64,000 nt of DNA, filler included, from Perkinsus olseni (GCA_013115125.1; 17 parts of 17 records of this genome joined end to end with filler, not necessarily neighbours in it), one strand, 5' to 3'; positions 2,346 through 48,700 are shown, counted from the first letter of the whole stretch. Notes: generated by a model not told the origin, from the sequence alone. Made by a program: numbers and translations.

Positions 2346-2792
2346 ATGCCTCGCGTCACATACCTGCTGCTTTGCCTGCTGATATCCCTTAAGTATGGTA
2401 ACGCCAGTTGCTTTGGCTGGTTCTCTAAGCATGACGAGAATGACCTGCTGCACGATGACGATCAGGCAGAGGATCCCCCGCTTGAGACGCCGAACCCGGA
2501 TGAGCAGAAGCAGGGTGAACAGAAGCAGGATGAGCAGAAGCCAGATGTGCAACAGGAGCCACAGGAACATCACGAAGAACAGCATCAAGAACAGCGTCAA
2601 GACCAGCGTCAAGACCAGCATCAAGAACAGCAGCAACCGGTTGAGCAGCAACTGGTTGAGCAGCAGCCTGTTGGGCAGCATCGTGAGCAGCAGCAACAAC
2701 AACAGCAGATACATCACGCTGCCGCCAGTCAGAATCTGGCTGAGTTTGACGATAGTTCGGTAGATTCTGGTTATACCAGCTTGGTGACATAG
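2346..2792 (+). CDS. secreted Gln/Glu-rich low-complexity protein (148 aa)
   Basis: ATG at 2346, signal-peptide-like MPRVTYLLLCLLISLKYGNAS, then CFGWF, then EQKQ/QRQD/QQPVE repeats. Confidence 0.7.
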   Translation: MPRVTYLLLCLLISLKYGNASCFGWFSKHDENDLLHDDDQAEDPPLETPNPDEQKQGEQKQDEQKPDVQQEPQEHHEEQHQEQRQDQRQDQHQEQQQPVEQQLVEQQPVGQHREQQQQQQQIHHAAASQNLAEFDDSSVDSGYTSLVT

Positions 2793-3995
2793 AACTTCGC
2801 AGGCGGCTGCTTTATAAGGCCCTACGCTCCGGGAGCTCACCAGCGGTCAAGATTATTGTAGAAGATTGTTCGAGGCTTACCATATAAGCAATCCTCTGGT
2901 GATTTTTTTAATGACTCGCGGGCCCACGAGTGCTTTCCTACATTAGACTTGTTGTTACTGCTTCAATAAACTGCAGGTTTCCTAGGCGACGCAAGGAACT
3001 GTTCGGTTCGATAAGTGAATGGGCGTGAGTTCGGGGTCTTGCTGGCATGAAAAGCCGCGTCCCAGCTGTGCGGGTGACAAAACTAGTTATGGAAGACTGG
3101 GCCAGTATGATAAACAACTATCGTGATGCGACTGCGGTTGTCTCATCTGTGATATTCCAACTTGGAATTTCCAAGTTCGGGTTTCGGAATCTGACATTTC
3201 CAAGCAAAAGCTGTTGTGGCTGGGATAAAGAAACGTAACCCCCGTCGTACGTCGGAATCAACGTGAGGACTCTCCTCGCCAATGAACGAAGCGAAAAGAG
3301 GCGAGGGACTCCAACAGAAGCAGACCGCGGCGGCTGCCATCCGGGAAGTATTTAATGCCGAATTGTGTCATCACAGTAATCTATTGGCGTGACACCCGGC
3401 GCTCTTGGTGCTGAGAGGCGTGGCGAATGTACCATGTACAGCGCGCTGTATGAGGAAAGCTCCAATCGATAAACGTGAAAGTCCTTCCCAGAGGACCCAT
3501 TTCTCCGACCTTGGTACTGCGCCGACTTTGTTACTCGGAGGGCTGACCTGGTCAGCCTCTCTTTGGGCCAAAGGTCAGCCTGACCAAATTGCCTGACGCC
3601 AATGAGGACCATTGCTTTGCTAATTTTGACGAGCGTTATCCCCTATGGTTTATTCCGGAGGAATGGTTGAGCATCTCGATGATCGCTTGAATAGCCTCAG
3701 TGTCGGATACTCGTGTCCCTATTTGTGTGCCTCCGTATCCCTTGGCTAAGCTATGGCTAGTAGTCTGCCCTNNNNNNNNNNNNNNNNNNNNNNNNNNNNN
3801 NNNNNNNNNNNNNNNTTAATTAATTAANNNNNNNNNNNNNNNNNNNNNNNNNNNNNNNNNNNNNNNNNNNNCCACCACCACCACCACCACCACCACCACC
3901 ACCATTCTCTCCATTCTTGCTGCTACTACTCTAACAGCAACAACGACAAGAAGACCAGTACTACTACTCTTAATATCTACGCTACTACTCGTCTA

Positions 3996-5787
3996 ATGCC
4001 TAGAAGTACAAATAACAGTGCTACTGCTGCTGCTGCACTCGGCGGCGGCGGCGGCGGTGACAACAACACCAACAGTCCAACGTCGTGCTGCTCATCGAGG
4101 CTAACCAGGAATACTATCCATACGCCACGGAATAGATCGTCATCATCATTATCCCAATCTAGACTCTTAACTGATACTAAGCATCATTATGGGGATGATG
4201 ATGGCGATAGCATAGCAGCTGCTAGGGATATGATGCAGCGTATGAGGAAAGCAAGAAGGAATATAACATTCAGGAAGGCCCCACTAAGGACTACTCTCAA
4301 TCTATTGCATTCCATAGCCAGGTAGTAGTAGTAGCAATAATAATAACAAGACCGCTGGTCAGCAGCAGCAGCATCATCATCATCATGATCAGCGTCACCC
4401 AGCGTCATTATTATTATTGTTATTATTATTCTCAGATCCATCCACTCGGTGCTCATGTATGTAGTAGCCCACGCCTTTACTCTGTAGGTGTTACTCTTGT
4501 TGTGGTAGTATGATGAGCACTATATTATCATCGTGCAGATACTTTATTGTACCATTCATGTTGTTATGGATAATAGGTAGGCTTACTGATGGTCCGCATC
4601 AACTACTTCAAGATGATATAGTTATTTGGGCGGAGTTCGTTACATGGTAATACGATAACAATCTCCAATAACAACAAGAACAACAATACATCATCCTCCT
4701 TGTCGTTAGGTGGATTGGCCTCGGTGTATTATCAAGTGTTGGCCTCGGTACTGGTATGCATTCTGGTTTGTTGTTCTTATTCCCGCACTTGTATCTAGTA
4801 TCATCAACAGCACAAGAATGTAACAACTTACAGTTTGACTGGAGGTAATAGTAAGACCAACGTAATAGGGGCATAAGATCAAGATTATTATCACCTTGTT
4901 GTTGTTGTTGTTATTAGAGTTAATATGTGGAGTAATGTTATGAAGCCTGATGAGACATTTACTTGTATTAATCCGGATTATACTCCAGATGCATACAATA
5001 CCAATGTTACATTCTGGTCATTATTATCAGCAGGATGGTTACCATGTATATTATGGGGTACAGGTACAGCTATAGGTGAACTACCACCCTATGCTACTTC
5101 GTAATAATACCACCAACTATCATACCACTTTTTTCATCTATTCATTATCAGGTATGCAGCACGAAAGGCTGGTCTTGAGGACGAGGACTTCAACCAAGCT
5201 TTTGGTGTAATATCAGTAACAACAACAACAACAATGCTTGTCATCATCATCATCATCATCATCATCATTCTAGTGGTAACGTGGTTAATTATATCTTCTC
5301 AGAATTCCAGCAATGACAACACCACAGAAGGTAGTAGTAGTAGTAATACCGATGTTGTGAATTGGATGAAGAATTGGATGATACAGTTCCTTGAGAAACA
5401 TGGATTCTGGGTAGTAGTATCACCACCACCACCATCACCACCATCACCACAATCATCCTGTACTGTCGCTTCAGGGGGTTTTACTCATGTCAGCCTGGCC
5501 TAATGCCATGTTTGATCTGTGTGGTTTATGTTGTGGCCATTTCCTTATGCCGTTCTGGACATTCTTCTCGGCAGTATTCCTAGGGAAGGCTGTTATAAAG
5601 GTACCCCCTACCTAACAGCATCATCATCATCATGAGTATGATCGTCTACTGACAGGTATTTGGTCAGCTGTTATTCTTCACGGTCTTATTCTCGCCAAAT
5701 GGGCGTCTAGCTATGGTCAAAGGTGTAGCACGAGTCGCTGGAAAGGTAATAATATCTTCATCATCATCATCATCATCATCATCATCG

Positions 5788-6704: not shown

Positions 6705-7475
6705 AGTAAGTCGTCATTGAATATCAATGCTAACGCAGACACTGCCACAAGAAGGTCATGATCAATTCTCAGGCTACTACTACTATCATAGTATGGGGAC
6801 ATCACCATCATCATCTCTGTTGTTATCATAATAATCATTATCCTTCTTTCTCTTGTTGTTGAGTACCATCCGATAAAAATGATCATTATGATCATAATCA
6901 TAGCATCCAAGCTTGTGCTTAGTCACCTAACAACAGCAACATCTATTATATGAATCATATGATGTAGGCATTCCTCTTGTTGTCGTTGTTGTCGTTCTTC
7001 TATGGCTATGTCATCATCATCATCATCATCATCAGCATCATCATCATCACCGCAGGTTGTAGGGTATCCATCCTCTTATAAATCAATACTATCGTCATCG
7101 TCATCATCTGGAAGCTCAGTTGATGATGATTCTTATTTTGATGAGGGTTCAAGAGGAAGAATAGATGATGGTAGTAGTAGTAGTAGTAGTATAGCCTTTA
7201 CTGCATAATCATCATCAGGTAACCTCGAGTACCACCATCCTGCAGGTTTTAATGTATTACCCGATAATACAACAACAACAACAACAACAACAACAGCCGA
7301 CGACGACGACGACGACGTTCGTACTCATCATGGCATCACCACCACCAGCAGCAGGAGGAATCTATCTAATAACACTAAGACCTTCATTAACTCACTCCTG
7401 TGCTTCATGGGAAGTGGTGTATTAGGTAGTAACAATGGTTAGTTGTTACATTGAGAAGATAATAATATTTTATCA

Positions 7476-7476
7476 G

Positions 7477-7537
<61 letters not shown>

Positions 7538-7627
7538 CGTTGTTGTCGTTGTTGTCGTTGTTGTCGTTGTTGTCGTTGTTGTCGTTGTTGTCGTTGTTGT
7601 CGTTGTTGTCGTTGTTGTCGTTGTTGT
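7476..7627. repeat. (TTG)n grading into (TTGTTGTCG)n microsatellite at contig end
   Basis: Direct inspection. Confidence 0.95.
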
Positions 7628-7730
7628 NNNNNNNNNNNNNNNNNNNNNNNNNNNNNNNNNNNNNNNNNNNNTTAATTAATTAANNNNNNNNNNNNNNNNN
7701 NNNNNNNNNNNNNNNNNNNNNNNNNNNCGC

Positions 7731-7976
7731 CAGTGTGTTGCAAAATAGTTGACTCATCAGGCCTTATCCCCCCTTCTCCCCCCATACAATGTTGTGTGTG
7801 TGTNNNNNNNNNNNNNNNNNNNNNNNNNNNNNNNNNNNNNNNNNNNNNNNNNNNNNNNNNNNNNNNNNNNNNNNNNNNNNNNNNNNNNNNNNNNNNNNNN
7901 NGGGTTCGAGATACCACACGCGCAAGTATCCGCACGAAGTTTTCCTTACGACGTTTCCCACTTTTGCAACTGACTG
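7731..7976. repeat. left terminal direct repeat (contains an N gap)
   Basis: Matches 11278-11479 on both sides of the gap; starts CAGTGTGTTGCAAAA, ends TTTTGCAACTGACTG, followed by TA. Confidence 0.92.
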
Positions 7977-8200
7977 TAGTACCACTTGAGCGCGCATTGT
8001 AGGAGACGGCTTTTGAACTTCGCATGCGCAGAAGGAATGAACTGCTGAGGACGACCCCAATGCAGCGCCGTTCAACTCAACAATTCTGATGCTCACACAA
8101 AGAGCATACAATACTATCAATAAACTACAGGTAGCTAATACGACGGAATACAGACTTCTATCATTCCACTAGGCAAAAAAAAGTTGCAGAGCAACAGTTA

Positions 8201-9778
8201 TCACGACTGATATGTGAGCACAAACGCAGCGAAGCACCGACCGCACGCAGGCAGGTCTCGCCTTCTCTCTTGACTGATGGGTGTACTTAGGTTGAGCCAG
8301 ACAAAGCGCTGGTTTAACATATTATTCTCTTCATGAGAGAGATCGCGACAGTCGAACTGACTGGGAACTGTGATGCACACTGGAGCGTCCTCGTTGTAGA
8401 TTGAGTCGCAACGACAAGATGATTTCGGCAAGGGAATGGTGAAGGGCTGCTTGCCCTCGAAAAAGCACAAACAGTCGGTAATAGAGAACCCTACCTGGCG
8501 GTTATTGAATCTAAAGTCATCAAGCAGAAAGATTTCTATGCGTTCCTCTAACAGAATGGAGAGTGGGTAGCTCCCAGACGCGAGGCCCCCTAGGGACTTA
8601 AACACGGCCCCCAAATGTTTAATTAAGAAGGATTTCCCAGATCCAGAAGGGCCGTAAATGGCCAAGTTCGCATTGCGAGACCTCCCACAGCCCAGCATCC
8701 GCAAGATACAACTCGAAAACTTCCTTTCACTTAACCCATTCTTCTGAAGTATCCCTGTGATCGCAGCAGCGGTCTGTCCTCCACAAGAACATGGGCCCTC
8801 CTGAGCTGCATCACGGAGTATGTCGACCCGTGATACATTAGACCTATCCAACTCGTGGGAGGCGTCATGTAGGGTCCATACCCGTGATAATAATGATGCA
8901 GGCGACTCATTCTGGTTAAGTAAGTAGTCTCTCACATTGCGCTCTTTATTCGCGGCGGACAGGAATGCTCTTTCAGTCCGAATCCTTTTGCTGACGATCC
9001 ACGGCGCTAAATCACTCAATCGGCGAATTCTAGACGTTTCGCCTGTAGTGCCCTGCTCTTCTGCTGCAGAGTACTCGTGTTTCGTGGGCTCACAAGGGAA
9101 AGCTGGGTGGCTTTGGGTAAGGTAAGGATGAGTGTCGGATTTTGTACAGTATGTGTATCCCCCGAGGTAACTCCGGGTTGAGCGGAAGTTTACCGCAATC
9201 CCGCGATCGCGCAGGAACCGGCCAATCCTACGCCAACGATGTCTCCTCGAAGCCGCCGTGCAAGCGTGGAAGTGAATGGATGTTCGGTCGCTGTGATATT
9301 CAGCCCCCACACATAGATAATTTAATGGAATATCGAAATGCTTGTAGGCTCTTTCCAACTCTTGCGCAAACCCCTCCTTCGAGACCTGCTCGCCTGGAAT
9401 ACGGAGATCGTCATTCCCAGCTGCCGGCCTAGGCCATGTGATTAGGTAGAACTTGGAATAATCGGGAGACTTCTGCTGAGTGCCCTGAGGTTCCTGGGTT
9501 TCCCCTCCCGTTGCCGGTTCTATGGTGAAAGGAACCTGCAGAAGACGAATAATCCCTCGTGAAGGACAATGCGGTGCATGGTCACGACGGTTGTGTCAAC
9601 CTACTGCTTGTGATAGTTGGGTTCCTTCGAGTGGGGCATCATGGATAGTTAGTTGGGAGTTGTCTTCCACTACGAAGTTGACGAGCGAGCCCAGTTGACC
9701 ATCAGTGGAGGAATTGCGGCTCAGTTGACTCAGCTGAGAGTCAGGCGAAACTGCCGCCTGTACGTCGAGGAATTCCAT
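8201..9778 (-). CDS. rep: CRESS-type replication initiator, HUH endonuclease + SF3 helicase; exons 9778-9605 and 9535-8201, ~502 aa
   Basis: RCR motif I FYLITWP (upstream of the listed ORF start, same frame), motif II IHFHA, motif III YCTK; Walker A GPSGSGKS, Walker B IFLLDDF, Arg-finger-like NQRF; 69-nt phase-0 intron GTAGGT...CTGCAG removes the in-frame TGA. Confidence 0.9.
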
Positions 9779-9792
9779 AAAGAGTTCGGGTA

Positions 9793-9884
9793 TTGATCAA
9801 CTGATCAACTGATCACCAAAAATTAAGGAGAGTGCAAGATCAATCTTCTTACTATTTTCAGCTGATCAGTTGATCAATTGATCA
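9793..9884. promoter_or_regulatory. inverted pair of (TGATCAAC)x3 iteron-like arrays just upstream of rep
   Basis: 9794-9815 TGATCAACTGATCAACTGATCA versus 9863-9884 TGATCAGTTGATCAATTGATCA: 22-bp inverted repeat with 1 mismatch. Confidence 0.6.
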
Positions 9885-10136
9885 GTTTCGAAGACGTGTT
9901 GAACGAACGAAACGTGCTAACGGGCGTTGGGGATGACTAAGCTCACTTGATTAAATCAAAATCTGTTGACCCACTCCACAAATGCTTGACATTGATCTGT
10001 AATTTGCGGCTATAGAACAAGTCGAAGATGCCAAGGAGTAATTGCCAAGACGAACGCTAGAAACTGGTTAACAACATCAATATAAACATGCAGCAAACAG
10101 TGGTACTATGACACAGCTAAAGCTTAAAATAGCAAA

Positions 10137-11213
10137 CTAACGCGCAAGCAAGGCTCCGCGGCGTTTCAAAACCTCAACGATACGGCTGCTCATGCTGTCA
10201 ATCAAGCTATTCGTGTCGATAGTGGCATAAATACGTTTCACACGGTCGATGAACTCGTCTTGATTTGAACAGGCACCCTTAGAAGCAGCTTCAGAGCGTA
10301 AGCGGAATTTGAGGGTTGAAAACGAATTTTCGATAACCGCTAAATCGGGAGAGCGAGGAGGGAAGTCCAGGTACCGACACCCATGTTGCAATAATAGATT
10401 CAAACACGAAGGAGTTCGAGGGCTTCTAAAATTATCAGCACAAATCGTCAGCTGGTTCAATGAACTCCTCTGAGCTCTCCGCTGGAGCCACGGAATTCCG
10501 TGTTGCTCGAGAAATGAATAGTAGGCGGAACTCGAATTATTCGGTATGGGAATTTCTTCTTCTCCCCACCCTATAATCCCCACAAATTTCAATTTGAGTG
10601 TATTCCCGAACCCACTACGTGTAGCTTCTTGACGATCAGAATGCTGCCAAGCTCTACTCATAGTAGCAGCTCTCCCCCCAGTCGGATCGAAGCCGATAGC
10701 CACCCCATCCATGTACATACCAACTCCATGGCGAAAGTATTCTACAATTCGCTGTGAATTGTACTCACAACTGTGTAGGACTTCCCTGGCCCATTGAACA
10801 CGTTTTCTACGGTCTCCCGATTTTTGCAACACTCGACGAGGTGTTTTACGACACTTCCATCCGCCGCGACGTAGGATGCGGGTGAATGTCGTGTACGAGA
10901 ATCCATAGTCGAGCTTCAAATAATGCGCTTTGCCCGTCAAGAATGGCTGCCGACTCCTCGCAGAGATGAAGGATCGAAGAACTCTGCGTGTACCTCGGTT
11001 GCTGAGTACCCTAGGGCGCCCAAGTCCATTCAAATCATTTGTCTTCCGCGTGCCGCCCTTTCGAACACTGCTTTTCGCCTTCCGCACTCGGGACACCGAC
11101 GACTGGCTCCGCCCAGTGTATCGAGCAATATCCCTGGTCGACCATCCCTTTCTCTTCAACCGGAGTATGGTGTCCACCTCGCTTGAGGACAAGAAGTACG
11201 GAGATTCCGGCAC
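10137..11213 (-). CDS. Tc1/mariner-superfamily transposase, DD34E
   Basis: N-terminal HTH (STRDIARYTGRSQSSVSR), GRPR linker, YMDG (D1), CADN (D2), PPRSPDLAVIE with exactly 34 residues between D2 and E; no in-frame ATG before the HTH. Confidence 0.9.
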   Translation of the reverse strand: MPESPYFLSSSEVDTILRLKRKGWSTRDIARYTGRSQSSVSRVRKAKSSVRKGGTRKTNDLNGLGRPRVLSNRGTRRVLRSFISARSRQPFLTGKAHYLKLDYGFSYTTFTRILRRGGWKCRKTPRRVLQKSGDRRKRVQWAREVLHSCEYNSQRIVEYFRHGVGMYMDGVAIGFDPTGGRAATMSRAWQHSDRQEATRSGFGNTLKLKFVGIIGWGEEEIPIPNNSSSAYYSFLEQHGIPWLQRRAQRSSLNQLTICADNFRSPRTPSCLNLLLQHGCRYLDFPPRSPDLAVIENSFSTLKFRLRSEAASKGACSNQDEFIDRVKRIYATIDTNSLIDSMSSRIVEVLKRRGALLAR

Positions 11214-11277
11214 CGAGTACTCTCGACCTGAGAAACATGTCGGTGGAAGTAGACTGGGCCCTTTCGATGCACTGCTA

Positions 11278-11479
11278 CAGTGTGTTGCAAAATAGTTGAC
11301 TCATCAGGCCTTATCCCCCCTTCTCCCCCCATACAATGTTGTGTGTGTGTCCTGGCGAATCTTTTTCTGGCTTTACTTGTATCAACATTGTATGGGGGGA
11401 GAGGGGGTTCGAGATACCACACGCGCAAGTATCCGCACGAAGTTTTCCTTACGACGTTTCCCACTTTTGCAACTGACTG
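11278..11479. repeat. right terminal direct repeat, 202 bp, with TIRs and internal hairpin
   Basis: Preceded by TA; 15-bp imperfect TIR (CAGTnnGTTGCAAAA); perfect 20-bp stem 11322-11341/11383-11402 with a 41-nt loop. Confidence 0.92.
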
Positions 11480-11583
11480 GCGANNNNNNNNNNNNNNNNN
11501 NNNNNNNNNNNNNNNNNNNNNNNNNNNTTAATTAATTAANNNNNNNNNNNNNNNNNNNNNNNNNNNNNNNNNNNNNNNNNNNN

Positions 11584-15596: not shown

Positions 15597-17268
15597 TCAT
15601 CTGTTGCCGAGATTGGTCCGTGAGGATGGTATACGAACGGGTTTCCAACGATAATTACTATCACTCGGTTCTTCTTTCTTAACAACCACGGATGGATGAC
15701 GATGATCCGCTCCACCAGCAACGGCCTGAGGGAAGTACTACGGAGGGTAGACCAGCTGATGGGTTATTACTGCTGTTGCCTCTCCTAATGCTTGGCTTGC
15801 TGCTGTTACCGCCGCAGCAGTCATGGCAGCAGCCGCAGCAGATCCTTGTTGTTCTGCTGCTGATGATGATTTACCCTTTACTGCATCTGGTTGATCTTTC
15901 TTGGCCAACCGATACTCCGCATTTTGACGAGTAGTCCGATCAATCTGCGTCAATTGTTGTTGTTGTTGTTAAAGTATGATCATTGTGTTGTATTACGTCA
16001 ATAAGTATGTCATCATCAACCTTTCTAAGTATTGGTATTGCCTTCATAGTCTTCGCACATTCCTCTGCAACTGACTGATAATTGCCTAACAACATAATGG
16101 GCAACAATCACTTCACCAACAAGAGGGATTGTTGTTGTAGAATTGTTGTACGGGGATTAGTACTTGTCATAAGATCTCTCTTCGGCAGTACTTGTAGTAC
16201 AGTTTGTATTATCATTGGTATCATCATCATCATATCATCCTCGTCAACACTACCATTTTTGCCATTCTTAGGATTACGATGATGATGATGATGATGGTCA
16301 TCCGCCGCTTGCCTCCCATACGCTGTCGTTGATGATGATGATGACGATGATACCAATCCAACACCTCCACTGAGGACCTGGTCCTCTTGTGGATTATATC
16401 TTAAAATGATAACAACAACAATGGACTGCTGCTGCTACGGTGGTCGCTTTATTATTACGGTAACATCTTGGTAACATCAGGTCTGTTGACATGATGTAAT
16501 TCTATTTCTTTATCCCCTCCCATATCAGATGTATCCAATAACGTTGCTGCCAGATCACCAAGTTGAAGAGCTTTTAACTCATCGTCGTCGTCGTCGTCGT
16601 CGTCGCCTTCATGACGTTGTGTAACATCCCCATGCTCTTGTTGATGATGAGATGGACTATAATCTAATATCAATCACGGTGTCATCATCTCATCATCGTC
16701 ATCAGTACTACTCTTATCATTAAAGTGTTCCAAAAGTGCAGTGTCAGGCAACAAGATCTTACCAACTTTCAAATGACGAAGTGCCTGAAAGAATAATCGT
16801 TTATTCTTGTTGTTAGTAGTATTAATAATATTGTGCTGATGATCATTATCATACCTCATTTATTGATGGTTGTTGTTCAAACCAGCTCACTGCTTTTGAT
16901 AAGTTTATCTCCTCTTCTTCCTCCGCCGTTAAATGATATATCATATCATTACTACTATTACCTCCTGCTGTTGTTGTATTACCACCAGCAAGCACTGTAG
17001 TCATTGTATTATTAGTCGCTTTAGTACCTGTTAGTATTATCATAGTTGAGCCAGAGAGTTTACTCTCTTGTGGGTTATATTATTATCCTCAGTACCTTCA
17101 TGTTGTTGTTGTGTATGATGTATTTGTGATAATAATGATGCCACTGTTGATGGTCTGCCTCTGTCAACTGATCCGGAATGTCTCAGATACTCGCGGTGTA
17201 GGAACTGACAGAAAACAACAACAGCGGATGAGATAGATAAGGGCGTTGTTGTTATGAGTGTCTGGTGT

Positions 17269-19243: not shown

Positions 19244-19725
19244 CCAATCATGGATATGATACTGATCGTGGAGAAGAGCTTGTGGAAGATCTTCTATCTC
19301 TAAACAATGTGAACGGCACCATTAATGATATTAAGGTTATGAGAATGACTGGTCAAGTAGCCTACATTAGGATGACTAAGGGCATCCGTAAGCAGCTGCC
19401 TGACCGCCCTTATGTTGACTGTAGAAGGGTAAGATTGGTGGATACTGGTTTTGTTGCGGTTTGCTACCGCTGTGGTAGTCGGGACCCCAAGCATGACTTC
19501 AAGAGTTGTGATAAGGACCCCATTTGTAAGATCTGCAGCTCCTCCGACCACTTAGCTGAAGCCTGTCCTAGAGAAGGCAGCAGCTATAAGGAGAAGAGCC
19601 ACTGTAAGTTCTGTGATAAGGATGGTCATGGCCCCTTCGACAGTATGAGATGCGATAGCTTGATAAAACTATCTAGGAAGATAGCGGAGAAGCAGCGGTC
19701 AAGCGGTGTGAATGATGGTTTCTAA
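19244..19725 (+). CDS. LINE ORF1 (gag-like), 5'-partial
   Basis: Three zinc knuckles: CYRCGSRDPKHDFKSC, CKICSSSDHLAEAC, CKFCDKDGH. Confidence 0.85.
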
Positions 19726-22700
19726 CCGTGATAACCACATGACCAGGGCTGGGCTTAAGATAGCATATTGTAATATTGGTAGAACAATTGTAGGTGGCCA
19801 GGCGTTACTTGACTATTACTCTGGCTGTGCTCCTGAAATTTTATGTATTTGTGAAGGAGGCCGTCTTGATTCTCGATGGTACTTGTCTTATGAGGTCTTC
19901 TCTGCTATTGGCGGCAGATCCTATGTACTGGTAAGGAAGGATATTATGGCTAATAAATCCTTCTCAGTGCAAGATCTGGTGGGGGTACAGATAGGTCTTA
20001 TCTGGATTTTATGTCTTTATTGTGATATCACCGAGGACATGGATGTCACCCTTGATAGGGTAGAAGACAACTTGGTACGGACGGATGATAAATGGGTGAT
20101 ATTCATGGATAGTAATGCCTATAATGAGTTATGGGGTAAGGGCCCCTTTGGCAGTACCCGTCAGAAGACGCGGGGAACCAAGCTGGCTCGATGGATTGAA
20201 GGAAATGATGTTAGAATCCACAATGACCCCTCTATGCCGACTTTTATTAGACCGGTTCCTGGGGGTGGTGTCAACGGCTATCAGTCCTCTTCCATTGATG
20301 TCTGCCTCTCTTCGGAGGTGGATATCGTTGGCTGGTCAACGGTGGATGGTGTTAGGCCCTATGACCACCTACTGATAGAGGCGATGGCGGTTACTGACAA
20401 GGCATCCATTAAGGTGAAGCGGGTCTACACTCGCATTAAGGATAAGCCTGCTTACTATGATGATCTGAAGTCGGCGGCCTCTGATTGGTATCATGACCTT
20501 CCGGATTTTATGCTCGCCATGGACATTGATGTTGCTATTGCTGATGTGGTCGATAAGATCAAGACGGTCAAGAACCGACACTNNNNNNNNNNNNNNNNNN
20601 NNNNNNNNNNNNNNNNNNNNNNNNNNNNNNNNNNNNNNNNNNNNNNNNNNNNNNNNNNNNNNNNNNNNNNNNNNNNNNNNATGCTGATGGTTGCTCTCAT
20701 CAGCAGATTTGAGAAGGCCCTTCCCCCTCACTCTGATTTGTCTCGCCGGTTGTCGAGGGAAAAGACACTAGCATGGCTGTGCAAAAGGCGACTGAGGTTA
20801 TGAAACAGTTGACTGATGAGGGGAAAGCTGTTATTGCTCTAAGTCTCGACATGAGGGGGGCCTTCAGTAATGCCCGTCATGATGTGATATGCACTACAGT
20901 AGAAGAGATGTGTGGGTCCCCGGTCCTCTTCAATCTGGTCTCTAGTTACTTACACCGAAGAAGATGCTTTTATAAAGGGAAGATGAGGCTCTCCATGTCC
21001 TTCAGCGGCACTCCGCAGGGAGGTGTAGTCTCACCATGTGTGTACCGTATATTTCATACGGTTCTGATGGGCATCATTGAAAGCTGTTCTACGGATGATG
21101 TCAGATTAATTCCTATCGTATATGCTGATGATACTCTAGTCATTTTATCTGGTGATAATGATCAGGCGGTGGTGGAGGCTGTGGGCAGGCTCCTGGATAC
21201 TCTGGCTGAGCAGCTCCCTGCCCTTGGCCTGAACATAAGCGAGGAGAAGAGTGTCCTACTGGGTGATAAGGCCTTCATAGAACGGTATGACTGTGTTCGT
21301 GGCATAAAAGTGAGACCTGCTATCGGTTACCTTGGTATGAGACTCACCCTTGGTGGTTCCTGGCTACCTCACTTTGAAGAAGCTGTAGCCCGGGCCCGAA
21401 GGGAGATTGAGATGTGTCGACGCCTCGTAGGGAAGGATGGTTGCTCTGCACTCAGCCCCAAGGGACGAGAGGTGATTAGGAACCACATTACGGGCGTCCT
21501 GGCCTATGGTCTGGTATGCTGGGGTGACCGCTTACGATTCAAGACCACTCGTGATAGGATCTCTGCGGTCGACCTCCGACTGGAGAAGGTTCTACTTGGT
21601 GTCCCAGGGACAGCTAATCCTGGCCTATGTGCCCTCCTGAGTGATAGGAAGGCTACTATATACGAGCGATTGTGTGTCCGTTATGCGTCATTATGGCTTA
21701 GAGGTCTTCCCCCAAGCCCAAAGTGGTGGGGAACGGTGGTCAAGCAACCATATCCCGTGAAGGGCACTGTGGATCATACTGTTACTAATGCTACCCCCCT
21801 CCCTAGGGGATGGGTTCACATTGGCAATGGCTGTGAGGTCACTGGTACGATAACTGAGGGTCTGGCTGGTGGAAAGGTGATCTTCCCGGAGGTTGAGGTG
21901 GTCATTTATACTGATGGTAGCCGAACTCCGGCTGTTGATGACAATGATGATGATACTACTCGGGTGGGAGCAGGCTATTATTCAGATTCCGAACTGATAG
22001 GGAATGGGCGGGTGAAGCTTCCGCACTTCGCCAACATTGCTCAAGCTGAGTCCCTAGCAGTATTGGAAGCTATGAGGAAGGCGGCTGAGAGCGGCGGCTT
22101 TTCCACCATATTGATTGCCTCTGATTCTCAGGCAATCTTGAAATCCCTCCTTTCGAGGAGGAAATCACAGTTGTCCTCTGATATTGTTGACCTGGCTCTT
22201 AGCGCCGACATTGACTTTAGGTTTATTTGGGTCCGCGGACATGCTGGCTCGACTGGCAACTCGATTGCCGACGGTATGGCTCGTAGCGGCTCCATCGTGG
22301 GCACCTTCAGGACTGTCCCGATACCAGGCAGTCACCTACGAGAGTTGGTATCTCAATCGGTACGGACGAGGCTCCCTTTGAGCACCCACTGGCAGGAGAT
22401 CCAGAACAAAACGATTCGGAGTTTCATCACGAGCAACCATCATTTGGCTATTTTGAAGCGTTCTATCCGGTTTCGTATGCATCGGCATGCCTTACGAGCC
22501 ATATTTGGCTTACTCAGGACCGGTCGCTACAGGTCAAGGAGTAATAACTTTGTTAACCCTAATTGTGCCAGGTGTGGTGGGGTTCCGGATGATACTGTCC
22601 ATCGCTTGATGTTCTGCTCGGCTCACCAGGAGAGCCGCTCGAAGATTCTTGGAATGGTTCCGAGGAGGATTTATGGTCCCTCTTTCTTTCTGACTCGGGC

Positions 22701-22749
22701 AAGCCGTATTAACAGTCTTGGAAGGTTGGTTCGGAGGATGGGTATTTAG
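19712..22749 (+). CDS. LINE ORF2: AP endonuclease, reverse transcriptase, RNase H, C-terminal Zn finger (split by gap)
   Basis: APE: YCNI, CICE, MDSNA, SIDV, YDH; RT: LDMRGAF, GTPQGGVVSP, YADD, YLG; RNase H: YTDGS, AE, SDSQ, WVRGHAG..GN.IAD; CARC...H...C. Confidence 0.9.
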
Positions 22750-26855: not shown

Positions 26856-28528
26856 CCTTTCGCAACTACGAGTCGGCTCGGGCGTTGCCCGGGGAAGTGA
26901 AAAGAGAATTGGAGAGATCCGTAGAGCGTGGACACATGGTGAAGTTGGCGGAGGGTGAGGAACCTCCACCGGGAGCGATTATTAGTAAAATTGCCTTGGT
27001 GGAAAAGCCAAATAGGATCCCTCGAGCCTTTAGACTGATAAATGATATGCGACGTAGTGGACTGAATGATCTGGTGACTTCTCAGGGGAACCTGACCGAA
27101 ACTGTGGCCCTGCCGGGATTGCGATCGGTAGGACAGTTGCTGCGCTGCGCCCTTGAGAGCTACGGCGATAGTGTCAGGATCATCGAGGTGGACGCCAAAG
27201 ATGCCTTTAGGCACCTCAGCGTGGCGAGGGAGGATGTTGAGTTTTTGTTTGTGGCAATCGAACGAAACGGATGTGAGGGGAGAGACCAATCGAACGAGAC
27301 GGGGCAGAAGTTCGACTACTACTACCATGTAAGGCTCCCATTTGGACTCGTTTCGAGTCCGTGCCTCTGGGTACGCGCGTATAGTTTGTGCCACAGGATC
27401 ATGCGAGCGATACTCTCCCTCTTATGCGTGTTATATGTTGATGATGGGTCGTGGGCGTCTTGCGACGCAACGTGCCTCAAAGATTTCCTGGCAGTGATAG
27501 TATTGTCCAAGGTGATGGGGGTGCTACTGGAATTAGCAAAGGCCAGAGTGTCGAATTCTCCGAGAACGTTAGGTTTTCAGTGGGATCTGCACACGGGCAA
27601 GCTGTCGATTCCGGATGAGAAGTTGGAGCTGATAGGAGGCCAAGGCGATTATGTCTTGCGTAAAGCGGGAGCAGGCCAAGCTGTGGAGTTAAACGTGGTT
27701 GAATCTCTCCTAGGCCGCCTGACGTGGGCCACACAATGCTTCACGAGATATCGCTGTCACCTGGCTCCTATATTTGCATGGTTGAAGGCAGTGAAACGTA
27801 AGAGGAATGCCGTGTCGAAAGCTCCCATTCGTTCGGCTTTTCTAGGTTCGAATGTCTGCGACAAGATACGTCTTTTGCTGGGGCTGTTGAGGAGCGAGCA
27901 GGTGCGGGCGTTCTCATTGCCTGAGATTATCGGGCGTTCAGTCGATGCAGATTGGGCGGCTTCGAGGTCTACAATTATTACAGACGCTAGCCTTGAGGGG
28001 CTCGGAGGTACGATTTGTTCAGTGAGTAACGGGCGTACTCTACGCCTGTGGTTCGCGCTGAATTTCAGACAATCTAGCGACACGGCACTTCGAAAGTTGA
28101 TGGGAGACACGTTTGTCTCAGGGGATATTTCGAGGCTGGAACTCTTTGCGATAGTGTTGGGTTTGCTCATTGTGGGCGAGATCCAAGGCGAGTCAGAGGG
28201 TGAATGCACTATCCTAAGCGATAATACGGCGGCGATACATGTAGTAAATAAAGGCTCAAGCAGTGTCCCTCGCATGGCGGAGCTGTGGGCCAGGTTGGTT
28301 GCGTGCAGGCGTGTGGGCCGGCAAGTGCGAGCCTTCCATGTGGCGGGCGTGAGTAACGAGATTAGTGATGATTTATCTCGGGGCGTAAGGCCTCGTCAGC
28401 GAGTAGCGCGGGCCCTCGGAAGGCGTGTGCCTGTGACGAAGTTCATCGAGCGCTTGCTGGGTGCTTCTGTGGGCGAGCTACCGGTATATTTTACGGTTAG
28501 TGAGGAGGAGGAGCTCCTTGGGCCTTGA
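26856..28528 (+). CDS. DIRS-type reverse transcriptase + RNase H
   Basis: RLINDMR, DAKDAF, LPFGLVSSP, YVDD, TDAS, ISRLELFA, SDN, HVAGVSNEISDDLSR. Confidence 0.9.
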
Positions 28529-29976: not shown

Positions 29977-30730
29977 TCCTGGGTCATATATGTTGTCGTG
30001 GTGTCACCATGTTTCTGTGTGCGACTGTTTCGAGGAAGCGTTTTTCTTTAGAGAGGTGTTAGAGTAGGAAGCTGGGGGAGTAAGGGTGAATCTTTCTTTG
30101 CCCGCCTTGCCCCAGCTGAGTTGGGGTGGCAGGTTTTCTGACTGCCTGCCTTCCTCGTGTTTCCCTCTGAAGGCCAGCCGGCGCAGTTTGGGCATCCACA
30201 GATTCTCGTGATGGTTTTCTGTATTCTCTTGTGGAGAGGATAGGCGAGGTGAATGACTTTTGCGGGAGTGCTGCTTAGGTGGATCAGGTTGTGGCCGAAC
30301 GTGGTGCTATGTCCATCTGGATTTGAGGCATAGCCTTCCTGGAGTGATCGGGCTTGTATTCATGTTGGTAGGGTTTGCACGTGGGTGCCTACTGTGACTG
30401 GAAAGTCTGGGTAGTGGTTTAGTGGCCCGATAATAGTGCGTTGTAGTGTGTAGCGGCTGTGGCAGTGGCTCCCGGGTCTGCATTCGCGAATCCGGTCTCG
30501 AGGAGGTGTCGGACACCTGGTGTCCCCTCTCGCGGGTTCTGNNNNNNNNNNNNNNNNNNNNNNNNNNNNNNNNNNNNNNNNNNNNTTAATTAATTAANNN
30601 NNNNNNNNNNNNNNNNNNNNNNNNNNNNNNNNNNNNNNNNNCCACTTCAAACAGTACGGTTATCTATGTCAAACTCAAACCAGAGCAGTGTTCTCACTGG
30701 GCAGACTACTAACACATCTCCGCAACTGGA

Positions 30731-33700
30731 ATGGTTTTCGACTTGGACACTGAGGTCAACGTCCCTCTGATCCTAAACCCTGGCTCCATATGCCAACGTC
30801 TAATAAGGGTTTGGTGCTATGTTGGTACTCAGCCTGCCCCAGCTATCCTACTCGGTGCCAGCACGATGACCAACATGAAGGCAGTGATCAACCTTAGTAC
30901 CCACACAGTCCACTGCGAGGCATTGACGGACGCCAAGGGCAACCCCTACCAGGTCAAGCTGCTCCCCCGGCTCGAACCTAATGGCCCACGTCCTCTGGCG
31001 CAGCTGAGTTCCGACGGTGATGATATCGAGTCCTTCCTCGCGTCACTCTCTGATGATGAGCTGGATGAGTGGCATGAAGCCAGAGCGGCTACACTCCCGG
31101 ACTTCCGGCTGTCTTTCCCCTTGAAAGACATGGTCCCGTCGACGCTGTCAACTACGCGAAAGTACTCCATCCCGTCTAAGCTCAAGCCGAGTCTCAATGC
31201 CAAGTTGGATCAACTTCAAGCAGGTGGGGTCATCAGAACAGTCGACAAGTGCACCATTCCCCCAGACGCCGTCATCTCTCCGGGCTTTGTCAAGGAGAAG
31301 AAGGGACAAGTCATGAAGGCTCCCGATGGCTCCGAGATCCCCAAGGTCCGGCTGCTCTGCGACTTCACCATTCTCAACTCAGTCATAGAGAGTCGCCTGG
31401 TGTGGAATACGGCCGTCGACAACATCAACGAGAACCTACACTCCATCCCTCATGACTCTAAATTCTTCTACGCCTGTGACATCACCGATGCCTACTATCA
31501 GATAGGCTTGGACTCATCGGTGTGGAGGTACACCTACTGCCGCTTTGATGATGAGTACATCTTCTGGCTACGACTACCGCAAGGTATGAGCCTTGCGGCA
31601 ATCTACTTCCCATTCGCGCTGAAATGTCAGCTGGACCTCTTGTACAAGGAGAAGGGCATCTGGCGGAAATGGTGGGTGGTCTACCTTGATGATATTCTGG
31701 GACATGCCACTACCAGACAACAAGCCACTGGGCGACTTCGGATCCTACGGTCTGCATTAAGGGCTCTTAAGCTCCCACTCTCGGACAAGGTCCCCATTGA
31801 GGTCTCTACGGAGGTGGATTGCGTCGGAGTCGCTGTCTCCCAAGCCGGTTGGTCGTTATCATCCAAGAACAGGGGCAAGCTGATTAAGGCCCTCAATGCC
31901 ACTCCCAAAACGGCAAAGCAACTGCATAGCCTCATCGGGGTGTACAACTACGGGTCTACCGGCTTCGTTACATCGAAGGCATCGGAAGTGGCCACCAACT
32001 TGGCGGTTCTGCATACTGCAGTCCACACCAAGCCCTTCAAGTGGACACCCCAGTGTCAGCACGCCCAGGACTTCCTACGTGAACACCTGGCTTCTTCCCC
32101 TCGAGCCTTCCTTGCCTTTGACGACCTTCTCACTAAATGTAAAGGAGGCCCCTATTCCCTCGCCATCACCGTTGATGCCGCTGATGTTGGGATAGGGGGG
32201 CACCTCTGGATGGTAAGACAGCCCGCTCGGGCCACGTCCATCCACGACTTGGCTAATGCGGAGATTGCTACTCTCATTTCGGCCTTCAGCCTTATCCTAG
32301 ACTCTCATCAGAAGGCGTGGCACACCTTCGAGAAGGAGTCCTTCGCTATCTACTCGGCTGTTATGCGGTGGCGAAGTCTATTGATTGGAGCTACGCGTGA
32401 TGATACGGCCGCTACGTACTCCCTGGATGAATGCTCCATCAAGATCTTCACCGACAGTACGGTAGCGGTGTCACGTGTGGGCAAGGGCTTCGACATCGAC
32501 CTTACTTCATCCAAGGTTACCCTCAAGGCAAAGCGCTTCCGGTCCTGGCAACTGGAAGTATCTGAGATGTCTTACTTACCTATCTGTGTGGTTCACTCCG
32601 ATGGGACCTCCAACTCAATCTCCGACTTCTACAGCAGGTATACTGAGTTCTTACAGGACTCAGCTCCGAGTACCGAGCACGCTGTGGTCGAGGTTGGTTC
32701 CCAACAACAGCCACTACAACTGGGTGACGAGATCAGTTCCACTCTCTTCATGGCCCCCAATGAGGACGAGGACCCCATCGACTCCGACGCAGACGACACT
32801 AGCAAGCCGGGAGAAGTGGTACATCTTTGCCTTACCCAGGGGCAAGCGGCGGTGATTGAGACGTCATACCATACCGATGAGTCCAAGTATCTCAATGTCC
32901 CTATCAGCCTGGTATGGAAGATTCTCAATGACCAAGATCATCATGAATTTGCCGATAACCTAGTCCAACGAGCCAAGGCCTGGATTGCGGGTGGCAAATT
33001 CACTAGGCGGTTGACCGAGAGTCCTCACTATGGTATGTTCACCCAAGCCACTAAACGACAACAAGACCTTCGAGATCTACCTTGGGTCCTGGTTATTCCC
33101 AGCACAGCCATATTCTACGAGGAGAACCTGATCAACCATTGCTACGACCCTCAGCAGGAGGCAACTTCAGCGAGGGACTCTCTTATGGCCTATGTCCATG
33201 ATGGCCGATGGCATCTGAAGTATGTGGCGGCATTGGAGCTACTATTCTCAATCTGTTGGTGGCCATCCATGGCAGTCGATCTCAAGGAGTACATCGAGGA
33301 CTGTGACTACTGCTCACGAACCGCCAAGCAAGCGTCCCTACCGTATCGCGGAGTCCTATCTGGCGATCAACGGTTCGACATTGTCTGCATGGACCACAAG
33401 AACTTACCCGGCCGGGCAGGATTGACCTTTACCAAGGTCCTTACCCTGACATGCCCAGCTTCTGGCTCTACCAGGTTTGTGCCTCAAAGGGTAGCCGATG
33501 CGGCCCAAACCGCCTTGGACCTTTATGTATCATGGGTAGCGCTCTGCGGGTGGCCCCGCCAAGTAGTGACAGATGGTGCATCGAACTTTTGCTCCCGTTT
33601 GTCAGAAAGACTCTACGCCTTGGGAGGCATTCGGCATAGGACGGCTTTGACCGCGGCTCCTACTGGTAATGCCGTAGTTGAGAGACGGCACAAGATCCTG

Positions 33701-34255
33701 GGTGAAGTCCTCAACTGGTATGACTCAACTTGTGGCATCCAGACCGACGACGACGTTCGTATGGCCTTAGCTGCTGCGGAACAACGCATTAACCATGTGC
33801 CCGATAGCAAGGGAACTACGGTCTATGCGCGAATGTTTGGTATCCCTCCCAACTGGGGCCCTCTTCAACGTCCTACTCGACTGGAGAATAACCAACAGCC
33901 ACCTAACGACGACGATCTCATCAAGGCGATAAATGACATCACCAACCACCTCACCAAGGATTTCAACCTCAGGAGAGACGCTAAGGCTAAGCAGAACGAG
34001 CTAAGGGTCTGCAACGTCACCGATGATACCAAGTACAACAATAACCGCCTAAGTTCTGCTAGCATTGGTGACAAGGTATGGATTCAAGCCAACCAACAAG
34101 CGGCCATCACCAACATCTACTATGACTCTCAAGGCAGAGCGAGGGCGATTGAGGCAGGTGGCTCCTTGTGGAACCCTAGGGATATTTCCCTGGTGCGGCG
34201 AGACTTGATCAACTCCATCCCTGCGGCTCCAATGTTCAGAAGTGACTCCATCTAG
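30731..34255 (+). mobile_element. Ty3/Gypsy pol (protease C-terminus, RT, RNase H, integrase), uninterrupted
   Basis: DITDAYYQI, LPQG, YLDD, DAA...EKE...TDS...N.ISD, H..H/CDYC zinc finger, D-D-E (MDH, TDG, VER). Confidence 0.92.
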
Positions 34256-45700: not shown

Positions 45701-48700
45701 CATGCATCGCGCACTAATACGACCTCCATCGCAACACAATGAATGCCTAACTCGAGATCGCACGTCTAGCGGCGTTGCTGCGAGTGTGCCTAGATCTCCA
45801 ACTTGAAAGGAGGAGACCTGGCGGTGGTGGTTCATACCCAGTCGGTGGAAAACATTGTTCTCCCGGTAAATGGCCAGAGTGTTCTCGATGTTGGTCTTGA
45901 GATCCTTCAAGAAACCACTTGGGTCGTCCTCGCAGAGCTTCTGGAAACCATCTTCATGACGTAGGCTGTTAACCAATGCACCCCAGTCATCTCGAGGTAG
46001 TTGCCCGAAGACCAGCTGATAAGGACTGATCTTCTCACGGAAGGTCGGGAACCGGTTATGTACTCGGGCGGCAACAGTCAACGCCTCTGGCCATGATGCC
46101 GACCCGGACTGGGAGATAACCTGACGGACACACCGCTTCAGCTCTTGATGGGCTCGCTCACATTTGCCATTCATGCGAGCCAAGTAGGGCAGAGAAGTCT
46201 TCTCCTCGATCTGGGCTCGGGCCTTCCAAGCCCTGACCACTTCAGCCACGAAGGCCCCGTCACGATCATGTAATATAGTACGGGGTAGATCGAAGTCCAT
46301 TCCCCAATACTTCAGCAGAGTCGCCACGAACTCGCCTCCGCACCGCGTCCTTGTGGCAGCGAAGCGGACGTACCCAGTGCAGAGATCCATGATCGTTAGG
46401 CTGAACCGGAACTGCCCCACCGAAGACACCTCGTAGGGACCAGTATAGTCCACGCTGATGGCCTCGAAGCGACCAGGGTAGCGGCGAAGGCTGAACTTCC
46501 CAAGACTGCGGTTAGTGCGGGCCGTCTCCACTTGGCAGGTGTGGCATTTACTCGTCCATGTCCGGCAGCAAGTTTCCATCGACGGCCACCAACAACGTTG
46601 ACGGAGTAGACACTTCATCATTGCCGGGGAGGGGTGACCAGTGGCTACACGCGAGTGAACCAGCCAGCATAGGTACTCACGAATAGGAACAGTCTTGATC
46701 TCATTCTCAATCTCGACACTAATGGTGCCCACCGGTATCACCACTAACCACCGAGGCAGGTGAGTAACCGGCTCAAGGGAGCTCATCATTAGACAATGGT
46801 CGAAGAGGAGGAAGCGATCCAGCCAGTCGGGTACCACCGTGGTGGGGTCATCCTTAACCGTCACCAATTGGTAGATCTCAGACACCGTCTTGCCCAGGAA
46901 CTTGGTCTGGTCATCTCGAGGTTGGGCTACTCGACAGGCTTCTTGGATAGGACCAACCAACGCAGGTGGAGCCCAGTCGCAGTCGGACAAGAAACCGGCG
47001 TCGGGCTCCCCCGACTCGGCAACCGTTTGAAGACATTGCTCCGTCTGTACCGCCTCATCATCTCGGTTCAACAAGTGGTTGGTGAGCCTGCTGAGCGCAT
47101 CAGCTAGGCCGTTCTCCACTCCCTTCACATGCTTGAAGCAGATGGACTTGAAGATCAGCATATCACTTGTCGAGTTGAACCAGCGAAGCCAACGTTGTCC
47201 TCGTTGCAAAGACGGTAACAGCCGCTCGCCCTTCTCCATGGTGGCCCACTTGTACAAGCTACCAGTGTTGTCAGTCAAGACGTATGTGGTCGTCCTTGAG
47301 GATATCAACCACGGTCGGAAGCGACAAAGGGCGACGTAGACCGCGTAACCTTCTCGATCCCAAGAGGGCCAGCTCCGAGAGGCTGAATCAAGCACCTTGG
47401 AACCCCACATGAGTAGACTACCGGACTTAGCCAAGGTGTCGGCAGAGACGTCCTCATCGACGTTGATCGACCACAGACAGAAACCAATAGCCACGTCACT
47501 GGCGTCGGCCTGTATCACATAACGTCTAGTGGTACTGGGTGCCGTCTCCTCGACAGAGTGGAAAGGCAGAAACCGCTGTTTGAACCGTAGCCGGAGGCGA
47601 TCATAGGCGACGTCCGCTTCCGGTGTCCACTTGAGCCTACCCGAACCCTTGAGTAAGTCGTTGAGAGCTCCCATGTCCTCGGAGAACTCGGAAGGCACAC
47701 GGACATAGTGGTAGGCGGTCCTGCAGTATTGGAGTAGGCCAATAAGAGACCTCAAGTCGTCTCGGGTAGTAGGCTTGGACTCCGTCATCTCCTGCAACTT
47801 GTCGATCTTGTCTTGAGACACCGACCAACCTCCCGGAGTGAGCTCCATGCCAAGGGCCGCCAGCCTTCGCCCAGCCTTCACCACCTTCTCCAACGAGACC
47901 GCCACTCCACAGTCCTGGAAGAACTTCAGTAGCTCCTGTACCTTCTGGTTCACCTCGTGCTCCGAGCGACCAAAGATGATGAGGTCGTCGACGTACACCC
48001 TCACGCAGCTGACATCGATACCACCTCGCCGAAGTAAAGCCGTTATCCAGGAGCTCCAGAAACTCGGACTTAGTGCTAACCCCTGAGGAGCCCGATTCCA
48101 TCGAACGTATCGATGACCGAACCGAGTGATGAGGTACCTCTTGCTGGAGTCGACCAGGCGCACGTTGAAGAATGCGTCGCGTAGGTCGATGGACGCAAAG
48201 AAGCTGGCGTCAGAGGGGATGGATGAGAGCAGAGACATCACATCTGGGCTGACCTCGTTGCAGTCACTGGTGTCCAACCGAAGATTAACCTTCCGGAGGT
48301 CGACGATGAATCTCCACTTCTGAGTGCCCTTCGGGATGGCGAAGCCATGGGAAACCCAGGGTTCGGGCCCCATCAAGTACTGAGCCTGTAGGTCAATGTC
48401 CTCCACGATACCACGGCTAACAAGGTCGTCCAGTATCTTGTTGCCAGCGTCGAGAGCCTCTTGGCGCATGGGAATATAGACGGCCGTCAGCGGTGGGTTC
48501 TCACGGGTCACTCTCAGTTCCAACTCAGGTAGTGAATCTGTAGAGAACGTCCTCAGGACCTGCCCGACCCACTTGTCTGAGTTGAGGTTACCACCCAGCT
48601 CCAGCCTGACCTGACCGTCGACTAAGTGGAGGTTGAGACCGATCTTGTGGAGGCTGTCAAGACCCAGTAGTAAGGGAGACTGGCCATCAATAACTCGAGC

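Follow-up and report, generated by a model that had tools for sequence, protein, structure and literature searches.

A 3,503-bp capsid-less unit of Perkinsus olseni encoding a CRESS-class Rep and a Tc1-type transposase, a candidate multicopy replicon

We analysed a stretch of 64,000 nucleotides (nt) of DNA from Perkinsus olseni (GCA_013115125.1), called here the window, and within it the segment at positions 7731 to 11479. An initial annotation had seen in this segment a candidate new class of mobile element in which a Rep gene of the type found in viruses with a circular, Rep-encoding genome of single-stranded DNA (CRESS viruses) and a Tc1-type transposase gene lie between direct repeats similar to long terminal repeats (LTRs). 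Our analysis leads to another arrangement. The segment derives from a unit of 3,503 bp that carries the two genes and only one copy of a 202-nt piece, and this piece was written twice by the assembler. On balance, we favour its interpretation as a multicopy Rep replicon, in the form of a small nuclear ring or of head-to-tail copies in an array, that was colonised by a Tc1-type module.

The window is a bin of small unplaced scaffolds and not a continuous genome. It contains 16 copies of TTAATTAATTAA (0.02 expected), each of them central in a 100-nt run of N, and these linkers of the form N44-TTAATTAATTAA-N44 split the window into 17 pieces that are sorted by falling size from 3,771 down to 3,353 nt. 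The stretch under study is exactly one of these scaffolds (7728-11483; 3,756 nt) and includes a 98-N gap at 7804-7901. Since the scaffold ends at artificial linkers, the window holds no chromosomal flanks of it, and any feature that crosses a linker, or is "bounded" by it, is an artefact of how the record was put together. Retrotransposon domains (reverse transcriptase, RNase H, integrase or endonuclease) were present in five of the ten long open reading frames (ORFs) tested in the other scaffolds, which fits a bin of collapsed repeats.

Two blocks near the left end of the scaffold are 100% identical to two blocks near its right end: 7731-7803 corresponds to 11278-11350 (73 nt) and 7902-7976 to 11405-11479 (75 nt). 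This identity is far beyond chance, and the studied scaffold is the only one of the 17 that shares 25-mers between its first and last 400 nt. The first of the two "repeats" contains the 98-N gap; both are a single 202-nt piece written twice and complete only at 11278-11479. The limits of the redundancy are set by differing neighbours, CGC versus CTA before 7731 and 11278, and TAGT versus GCGA after 7976 and 11479. The outer bases of the scaffold, CGC (7728-7730) and GCGA (11480-11483), are mutual reverse complements over 3 nt.

Public contigs were compared with positions 7977-11479. Runs X1 and X3 are DNA, and runs X6 and X9 are taken as probable RNA, which is a guess, none of the listed runs being recorded as RNA. 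Contigs of four runs from four studies cover the unit at a likeness of at least 95%, and 99 of the 125 contigs reach at least 99%. A joint that leads from 11479 directly to 7977 and thus goes back 3503 positions, exact and with zero letters between, was found in contigs of both DNA runs, which come from two studies. It is present in one X1 contig of 1,282 nt (11096-11479 followed by 7977-8874; depth 4,203.5), with 255 nt on the shorter side, and in one X3 contig of 463 nt (depth 3,247.6), with 143 nt on the shorter side; it was not seen in the X9 contigs. The real unit therefore measures 3,503 bp and contains one 202-nt piece, head to tail, and the redundancy of the scaffold ends implies that the end repeats are not LTR-like boundaries. 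The matching end repeats described in the initial annotation thus exist as identical blocks, but they do not bound the unit, being redundancy of the assembly across the joint. Its expected ~3.5-kb form with one repeat is present as sequence in the joint found in the contigs, although a circle and a tandem array would give the same contigs. No loose ends running into other DNA are listed among the contigs, which is no evidence either way because repeat contigs break at branch points. When the unit was divided into 30 bins, X6 contigs covered 28 and X9 contigs 18 of them, parts of both genes included.

The limits of the redundancy match the termini of an inverted repeat to the base. These terminal inverted repeats of the 202-nt piece are 15 nt long, are alike at 13 of the 15 positions and both begin with CAGT. 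In the head-to-tail form the piece has the dinucleotide TA beside it on both sides, at 11276-11277 and 7977-7978. Over its full length the piece folds into a hairpin (z -6.27), and it includes a 25-nt palindrome, and no coding match was found in it. Its CAGT termini and flanking TA, a combination which we take to be the mark of Tc1-type elements, led us to read it as a Tc1-type miniature element: short and non-coding, with inverted ends and TA on both sides, it would be a miniature inverted-repeat transposable element (MITE) of Tc1 type. The picture of two genes enclosed by LTR-like direct repeats is not supported. The repeated piece is a Tc1-type inverted-repeat mini-element, and the transposase gene lies outside its ends. 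No further copies of the piece were found in the other 16 scaffolds (~60 kb) or in IMG/VR. A second 12-nt match to one of the inverted repeats, at 16063-16077, was rejected as chance, because 21 matches with at most three mismatches were found versus 18 expected and TA is not adjacent to it. At 10822-10832 on the minus strand, inside the transposase frame, 11 nt repeat the core of one of the two inverted termini (GTGTTGCAAAA); this match could be due to chance (a few in a hundred by a rough estimate) or be a candidate internal binding site.

The Rep frame (8201..9595, minus strand, 464 codons) is co-oriented with the transposase frame (10137..11300). Upstream of it, a 66-codon frame starting with MEFLD (ATG at 9778) meets a TGA at 9596-9598, and the same frame continues to 8201. 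A 69-nt GT..AG intron that includes this TGA is skipped in one X6 contig of 2,224 nt, with 255 nt on the shorter side of the splice joint, and this joint is absent from the contigs of the DNA runs X1 and X3. Removal of the intron eliminates the sole in-frame stop and yields a spliced coding sequence of 1,509 nt, without internal stops, for a protein of 502 amino acids, whose residues 1-499 align with a 498-residue Perkinsus olseni protein at 48% identity. Judging from its sequence, the Rep gene is apparently intact, and a single long contig in spliced form, probably of RNA, indicates its expression.

Rep is a CRESS-class protein in which an HUH nuclease is joined to a superfamily 3 (SF3) helicase of parvovirus/E1-like flavour. 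It keeps the invariant residues of its family, namely E79, H81, H88, H90, Y123, Y129, K301, D340 and four cysteines. Motif II reads HFHA (H88-H90; both histidines are kept by 39 of 40 members) and motif III reads YCTK (Y129-K132; Y129 in 40 of 40), and the helicase has the Walker A motif GPSGSGKS (K301) and the Walker B motif LLDDF (D340). The nuclease domain (exon-2 residues 23-150), modelled alone, reached a predicted local distance difference test (pLDDT) score of 94.4. Foldseek matched this model with tomato yellow leaf curl virus (1.7e-5) and Vientovirus (2.7e-5), then with wheat dwarf virus and circoviruses. Alignment against the full library gave Z values of 11.2 and 10.6 for Vientovirus, 9.8 for duck circovirus, 9.7 for a geminivirus and 9.2 for a nanovirus, and lower ones for pMV158 RepB (7.9) and NS1 of the parvovirus MVM (6.0). 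The full model of Rep (pLDDT 89.2) had as its best fold match Rep68 of adeno-associated virus 2 (AAV2), over ~500 columns with poor superposition (TM score 0.43), followed by E1 and Rep40 helicases, and against viral models it gave a mixture of parvovirus NS1, E1 and CRESS Rep matches. In a profile built from 40 Rep members the helicase part matched AAV Rep40/68 (2.6e-7) and porcine circovirus 2 Rep (0.0073), and also B19 NS1 and papillomavirus E1, whereas against HUH nucleases the same profile gave only E values of about 0.1. Pfam contacts among the 40 aligned members were all weak (REP_ORF2-G2P in 21, Parvo_NS1 in 8, PPV_E1_C in 6 and Gemini_AL1 in 4). The cysteines C249, C251, C431 and C434 (exon-2 numbering) are invariant or nearly so and form a CxC before the helicase and a CxxC at the C-terminus; this pattern suggests a zinc site linking the two ends.

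A word-indexed protein search returned four relatives of Rep, three from Perkinsus (39-51% identity) and one, P0001, that is 95% identical and is encoded on a 3,560-nt contig. An exhaustive search found 657 relatives at E<=1e-3, and 288 of them reached <=1e-10. The nearest ones, at 45-51% identity, are Perkinsus nuclear genes, and the contigs with Perkinsus relatives span 36-306 kb, so that these relatives are chromosomal. Perkinsus olseni and Polarella glacialis are represented among the 20 clusters examined, the others being on contigs of 1.4-6.2 kb. A fusion of the family's helicase part to a SAM domain occurs in the dinoflagellate Polarella glacialis, where many neighbouring genes on one 145-kb contig encode it. 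P0001, which comes from a different data set, begins in the middle of the nuclease domain and has the second Asp of its Walker B motif replaced, and by these features it may be a decaying variant of the studied unit; no transposase product of its contig was found in the protein collection. None of 581 pattern matches in IMG/VR was confirmed as a relative of Rep. A metagenome scan gave seven loci with only two of full length, L001 and L002, which are contigs of 1.75-1.97 kb that carry Rep alone.

The second gene encodes a transposase of the Tc1/IS630 type. Two helix-turn-helix (HTH) families of Pfam scored above their cut-offs, HTH_38 with 28.6 bits (cut-off 27) and HTH_23 with 26.0 bits (cut-off 24.6), and DDE_3 and HTH_Tnp_Tc3_2 scored below theirs. 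The NCBIfam IS630 profile matched with E 3.8e-18 over positions 4-294 of 299, its 66 bits being under the curated cut-off of 100, and the Atlas neighbours of the protein are Tc1/DDE_3 clusters at 0.97. The catalytic residues are D198, D289 and E324, with 90 and 34 residues between them, and this spacing supports the DD34E reading. No relatives at E<=1e-3, of near or shorter lengths, were found in the word-indexed collection, which does contain Perkinsus relatives of Rep, and a sequence search of PDB gave only the Sleeping Beauty catalytic domain at E about 1.

There is no ATG in the transposase frame before about codon 195, and the upstream end of the frame lies inside the 202-nt piece. When this piece and one TA are removed from the closed ring, a frame of 412 codons results that begins with an ATG at 8025 and leads on into that of the transposase. 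Together, the piece and one TA amount to 204 nt, a multiple of three, yet this stretch contains in-frame stops. The mini-element thus appears to sit within the 5' portion of the transposase coding sequence, an arrangement that we infer from an additional frame so short that it could be due to chance. An intron that would remove the piece was looked for manually and discarded, since no frame-keeping GT..AG pair was found, and an X6 contig (10718-11479) crosses the boundary between piece and transposase at 11278 unspliced. Inverted repeats belonging to the transposase gene itself were likewise rejected, as the best inverted match of 10 nt was equalled by 40 of 300 shuffles.

The two genes and the 202-nt piece fill the 3,503 bp. 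Upstream of rep there is a palindrome at 9794-9884 with 32-nt arms that are 84% alike (z -6.5 and -5.4; none of 200 shuffles was as stable), which from its sequence is a candidate binding site of Rep or origin. No Pfam family was found in the six other ORFs of the unit, be it for a capsid or for a third gene, a tRNA search of the unit found none, and Rfam gave no family above threshold, with sub-threshold microRNA-like matches on two hairpins only. The account of the genes in the initial annotation is upheld in part. The HUH Rep with its SF3 helicase is borne out by motifs II and III, the Walker A and B motifs, the CRESS nuclease fold and the AAV Rep40 profile match, the Tc1/IS630-type DD34E transposase by its catalytic residues and domain matches, and a capsid is indeed lacking in the ORFs searched. 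Both genes are long and co-oriented on the minus strand as described, but not "uninterrupted", because Rep has the TGA in its intron and the transposase has no early ATG. Coordinates of the features are collected in Table 1.

Table 1. Positions of the features of the 3,503-bp unit and of its scaffold, counted from the first letter of the window
Feature	Position	Strand	Basis or remark
Actual unit of 3,503 bp, a circle or a head-to-tail tandem	7977..11479	.	Joint 11479->7977 in X1 and X3
202-nt mini-element, complete copy	11278..11479	.	Inverted termini of 15 nt; TA at either side when closed to a ring
Second writing of the 202-nt piece, its middle being the 98-N gap 7804-7901	7731..7976	.	Identical blocks
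Rep exon 1, 58 codons, ATG at 9778	9605..9778	-	From residue 1 on, N-terminus aligns with P0002 and P0154, both Perkinsus olseni proteins
Rep intron, 69 nt, GTAGGT..CTGCAG, contains in-frame TGA 9596-9598	9536..9604	-	Contig joint skipping 69 nt
Rep exon 2, 444 codons and stop	8201..9535	-	HUH nuclease ~9086-9469, SF3 helicase ~8282-8773
Imperfect palindrome of GATC-containing 8-mers, 91 nt	9794..9884	.	16 nt upstream of the Rep ATG
Tc1/IS630-like transposase frame, 387 codons stop to stop, DD34E	10137..11300	-	Pfam, NCBIfam, alignment
Possible original 5' end of the transposase, ATG at 8025	7977..8025	-	Inferred from the closed ring minus the piece
Artificial scaffold-joining linker N44-TTAATTAATTAA-N44	7628..7727	.	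One of 16 identical linkers in the window
Artificial scaffold-joining linker	11484..11583	.	One of 16 identical linkers in the window

According to the interpretation that we favour, the unit would belong to a Perkinsus-like alveolate, and the assembler would have written a ring or an array linearly, with the 202-nt piece at both ends. Rep would bind the GATC-repeat palindrome upstream of its own gene, the tyrosine of its YxxK motif would nick one strand near the palindrome, and rolling-circle copying driven by Rep would produce rings and concatemers; such copying would explain the high depth and the uniformity of the sequence. The Tc1 module would have arrived on the replicon as a transposon, and a mini-element of the same kind would later have put it out of action, at least in the dominant form. 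A part of the Tc1 module in the life cycle of the replicon, or a cooperation of Rep and transposase, is hypothetical.

Several observations weigh against this interpretation. The contigs do not separate a ring from a chromosomal tandem array, nor single-stranded from double-stranded DNA. The word depths of the long contigs (4,056-4,204 in X1 and 2,787-3,248 in X3) have no single-copy baseline and are not equal to copy number. In X6 the joint from 11479 to 7977 has 30 nt on one side only, under the 31-nt criterion, and in X9 the splice joint has 21 nt on one side only, so that splicing depends on a single long contig, and the run it belongs to is RNA by guess only. An origin motif, the nonanucleotide included, was not recognised in the unit, and the palindrome is a candidate only. 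The outer CGC and GCGA of the scaffold match neither the continuation of a ring nor a TA target; they hint at another molecule, or at an assembly quirk that stopped at the termini of the inverted repeats. Finally, the transposase frame remains open over 387 codons, and it was thus either disabled very recently or is still used, the latter favouring a functional link with Rep.

A purely chromosomal, satellite-like tandem array, made of an endogenised Rep and a dead Tc1 gene with no free ring today, seems to us possible, if rather unlikely. Unequal crossing-over could have given rise to such an array, as could a rolling-circle concatemer that integrated in the past. It predicts the joint equally, and it is in line with the chromosomal position of the Perkinsus relatives of Rep, on contigs of 36-306 kb, with the runs of neighbouring genes that relatives of the helicase part form on one Polarella glacialis contig, and with the finding of the scaffold in a bin rich in collapsed repeats (five of ten other long ORFs with retrotransposon domains). 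However, an array has no need of a Rep that retains every invariant catalytic residue and its splicing, and the unit is very uniform for an old array, the variant contigs listed in X1 having depths of 3.6 and 10.1 versus ~4,000 for the unit. Another possibility, a corrected form of the idea in the initial annotation, is that the Tc1 module is integrated in the life cycle: Rep would multiply the ring; on a dimer or concatemer, two 202-nt pieces in succession would supply with their outer ends a Tc1-type transposon of the form piece-Rep-transposase-piece; the DD34E enzyme would paste it into TA sites; and the ring would be released again by recombination between the two pieces, or by Rep. The scaffold does have the form piece-unit-piece and ends 3-4 nt beyond both inverted-repeat termini, the two genes share their orientation and lie close together within the unit, the transposase has an open frame and an intact DD34E triad, and contigs of the probable-RNA runs cover both genes. 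We still regard this life cycle as quite unlikely, since the outer flanks are not TA, the transposase has no start and is split by a piece that contains in-frame stops, and the collection with the Perkinsus relatives of Rep has no relative of the transposase, which is a weak hint that Rep occurs alone. Among the loci covered, none other than this unit paired the two genes, and the new class of mobile element of the initial annotation, with copying by Rep and integration by the DDE enzyme, is so far hypothetical.

A eukaryotic "transposable plasmid", a capsid-less nuclear ring of a perkinsid that is copied by its own CRESS-class Rep and inserted into chromosomes by a Tc1-type DDE transposase at the outer ends of two consecutive 202-nt pieces of a concatemer, is in our estimation unlikely. 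An artefact, either a chimeric scaffold or a contaminant, for instance a plasmid or virus that the culture or the host animal contributed, would account for the scaffold being short, unplaced and gapped, with odd ends of 3-4 nt. We consider it highly improbable, because contigs of four runs from four studies cover the unit with both genes and the joint included, because a GT..AG intron is present and because the nearest relatives (45-51% identity) are Perkinsus nuclear genes.

Reps encoded by CRESS-DNA viruses (Cressdnaviricota, with gemini-, circo-, nano- and redondoviruses) share with the studied Rep the HUH motifs I-III, an oligomerisation region and SF3. These viruses offer the closest nuclease fold and are also similar as small units of ~3.5 kb with a palindrome upstream of rep. 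The studied unit differs from them in the lack of a capsid gene, for which reason it is not a CRESS virus, and in the spliceosomal-type intron of its Rep gene. Moreover, parvovirus Rep/NS1 and papillomavirus E1 give the better scores for its helicase and long helical linker, it has no recognised nonanucleotide origin, and its Rep has no relative in IMG/VR. Arrangements that are not known to carry a transposase also occur in eukaryotes, such as the tandem arrays of integrated geminivirus-related DNA in Nicotiana and the small Rep-bearing plasmids of red algae. The unit resembles these in that Rep units occur as head-to-tail chromosomal repeats or as small eukaryotic plasmids.

The bacterial counterpart is pCRESS, capsid-less plasmids with a Rep of the HUH and SF3 type that for the most part are inserted into the genomes of bacteria (Kazlauskas et al. 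2019, PMC6668415). As described there, they are likewise capsid-less replicons built around a CRESS-class Rep, and their integrative families have a separate integration function (PMC6668415). The studied unit differs from them in being eukaryotic, in its spliced Rep, in the companion DDE enzyme of Tc1/IS630 type and in that its integration is hypothetical. The unit would work like a capsid-less CRESS-class replicon. The same source mentions vespertilioviruses, inoviruses that replicate by means of IS3/IS30-family transposases (PMC6668415). These would be a precedent for the acquisition of DDE transposases by small replicons, but they are bacterial, and in them the transposase replaces Rep rather than accompanying it (PMC6668415).

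With Tc1/mariner elements and MITEs the unit has in common the HTH and DD34E transposase, and a short non-coding element with CAGT inverted ends and TA flanks, features typical of Tc1. In contrast to those elements, the inverted repeats enclose only 202 nt and no other pair of ends was found; because the transposase gene is outside the inverted repeats, the unit is not an autonomous Tc1 element. Helitrons and Replitrons are similar as eukaryotic mobile DNA that depends on a HUH nuclease of the Rep class, the helicase of Helitrons being of the SF1/Pif1 class. As described, Helitrons fuse a two-tyrosine Rep to a helicase (RepHel) and the Rep of Replitrons is without helicase (Craig 2023, PMC10288648). 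The studied Rep has a single YxxK motif and, with its SF3 helicase, the unit is not a Helitron; it carries a helicase, whereas Replitrons, by that description, have none, and the unit is consequently not a Replitron (PMC10288648). Neither group is known to carry a DDE enzyme. MITEs of Tc1/mariner type are reported in Pandoravirus, and a MITE colonising a small replicon recalls them (PMC4495683). Within the literature covered by full text, with most subscription journals and all supplements outside the coverage, no description was found of such a unit in Perkinsus or of a pair of Rep and Tc1.

Perkinsids are close to dinoflagellates and apicomplexans. Should the unit be a free ring, it would be a natural multicopy nuclear replicon of a perkinsid, and a new kind of replicon. 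Evidently a CRESS-class Rep can live as an intron-bearing gene that is spliced by its host, in a family of several hundred proteins. Were the Tc1 module to act together with Rep, one small element would unite the two great mechanisms by which DNA moves, copying by rolling circle and cut-and-paste by DDE enzymes, and if the idea of a "transposable plasmid" were true, the result would be a two-enzyme copy-out/paste-in element with no described eukaryotic counterpart. Even as nothing more than a tandem array, the unit offers a clear example of a MITE that has colonised a repeat with a Rep gene.

The other scaffolds of the bin gave some additional observations. Retrotransposon frames are located at 19712-22749, 26856-28528, 30713-34255 and 45701-49339, with up to 1,213 codons open, and they include non-LTR types (endonuclease, reverse transcriptase and RNase H) as well as LTR types (reverse transcriptase-RNase H-integrase). 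Many scaffolds of the bin terminate in (GTT)n/(CAA)n or similar trinucleotide runs, an example being the stretch at window positions 7440-7627, and these terminal runs are probably what halted the assembler.

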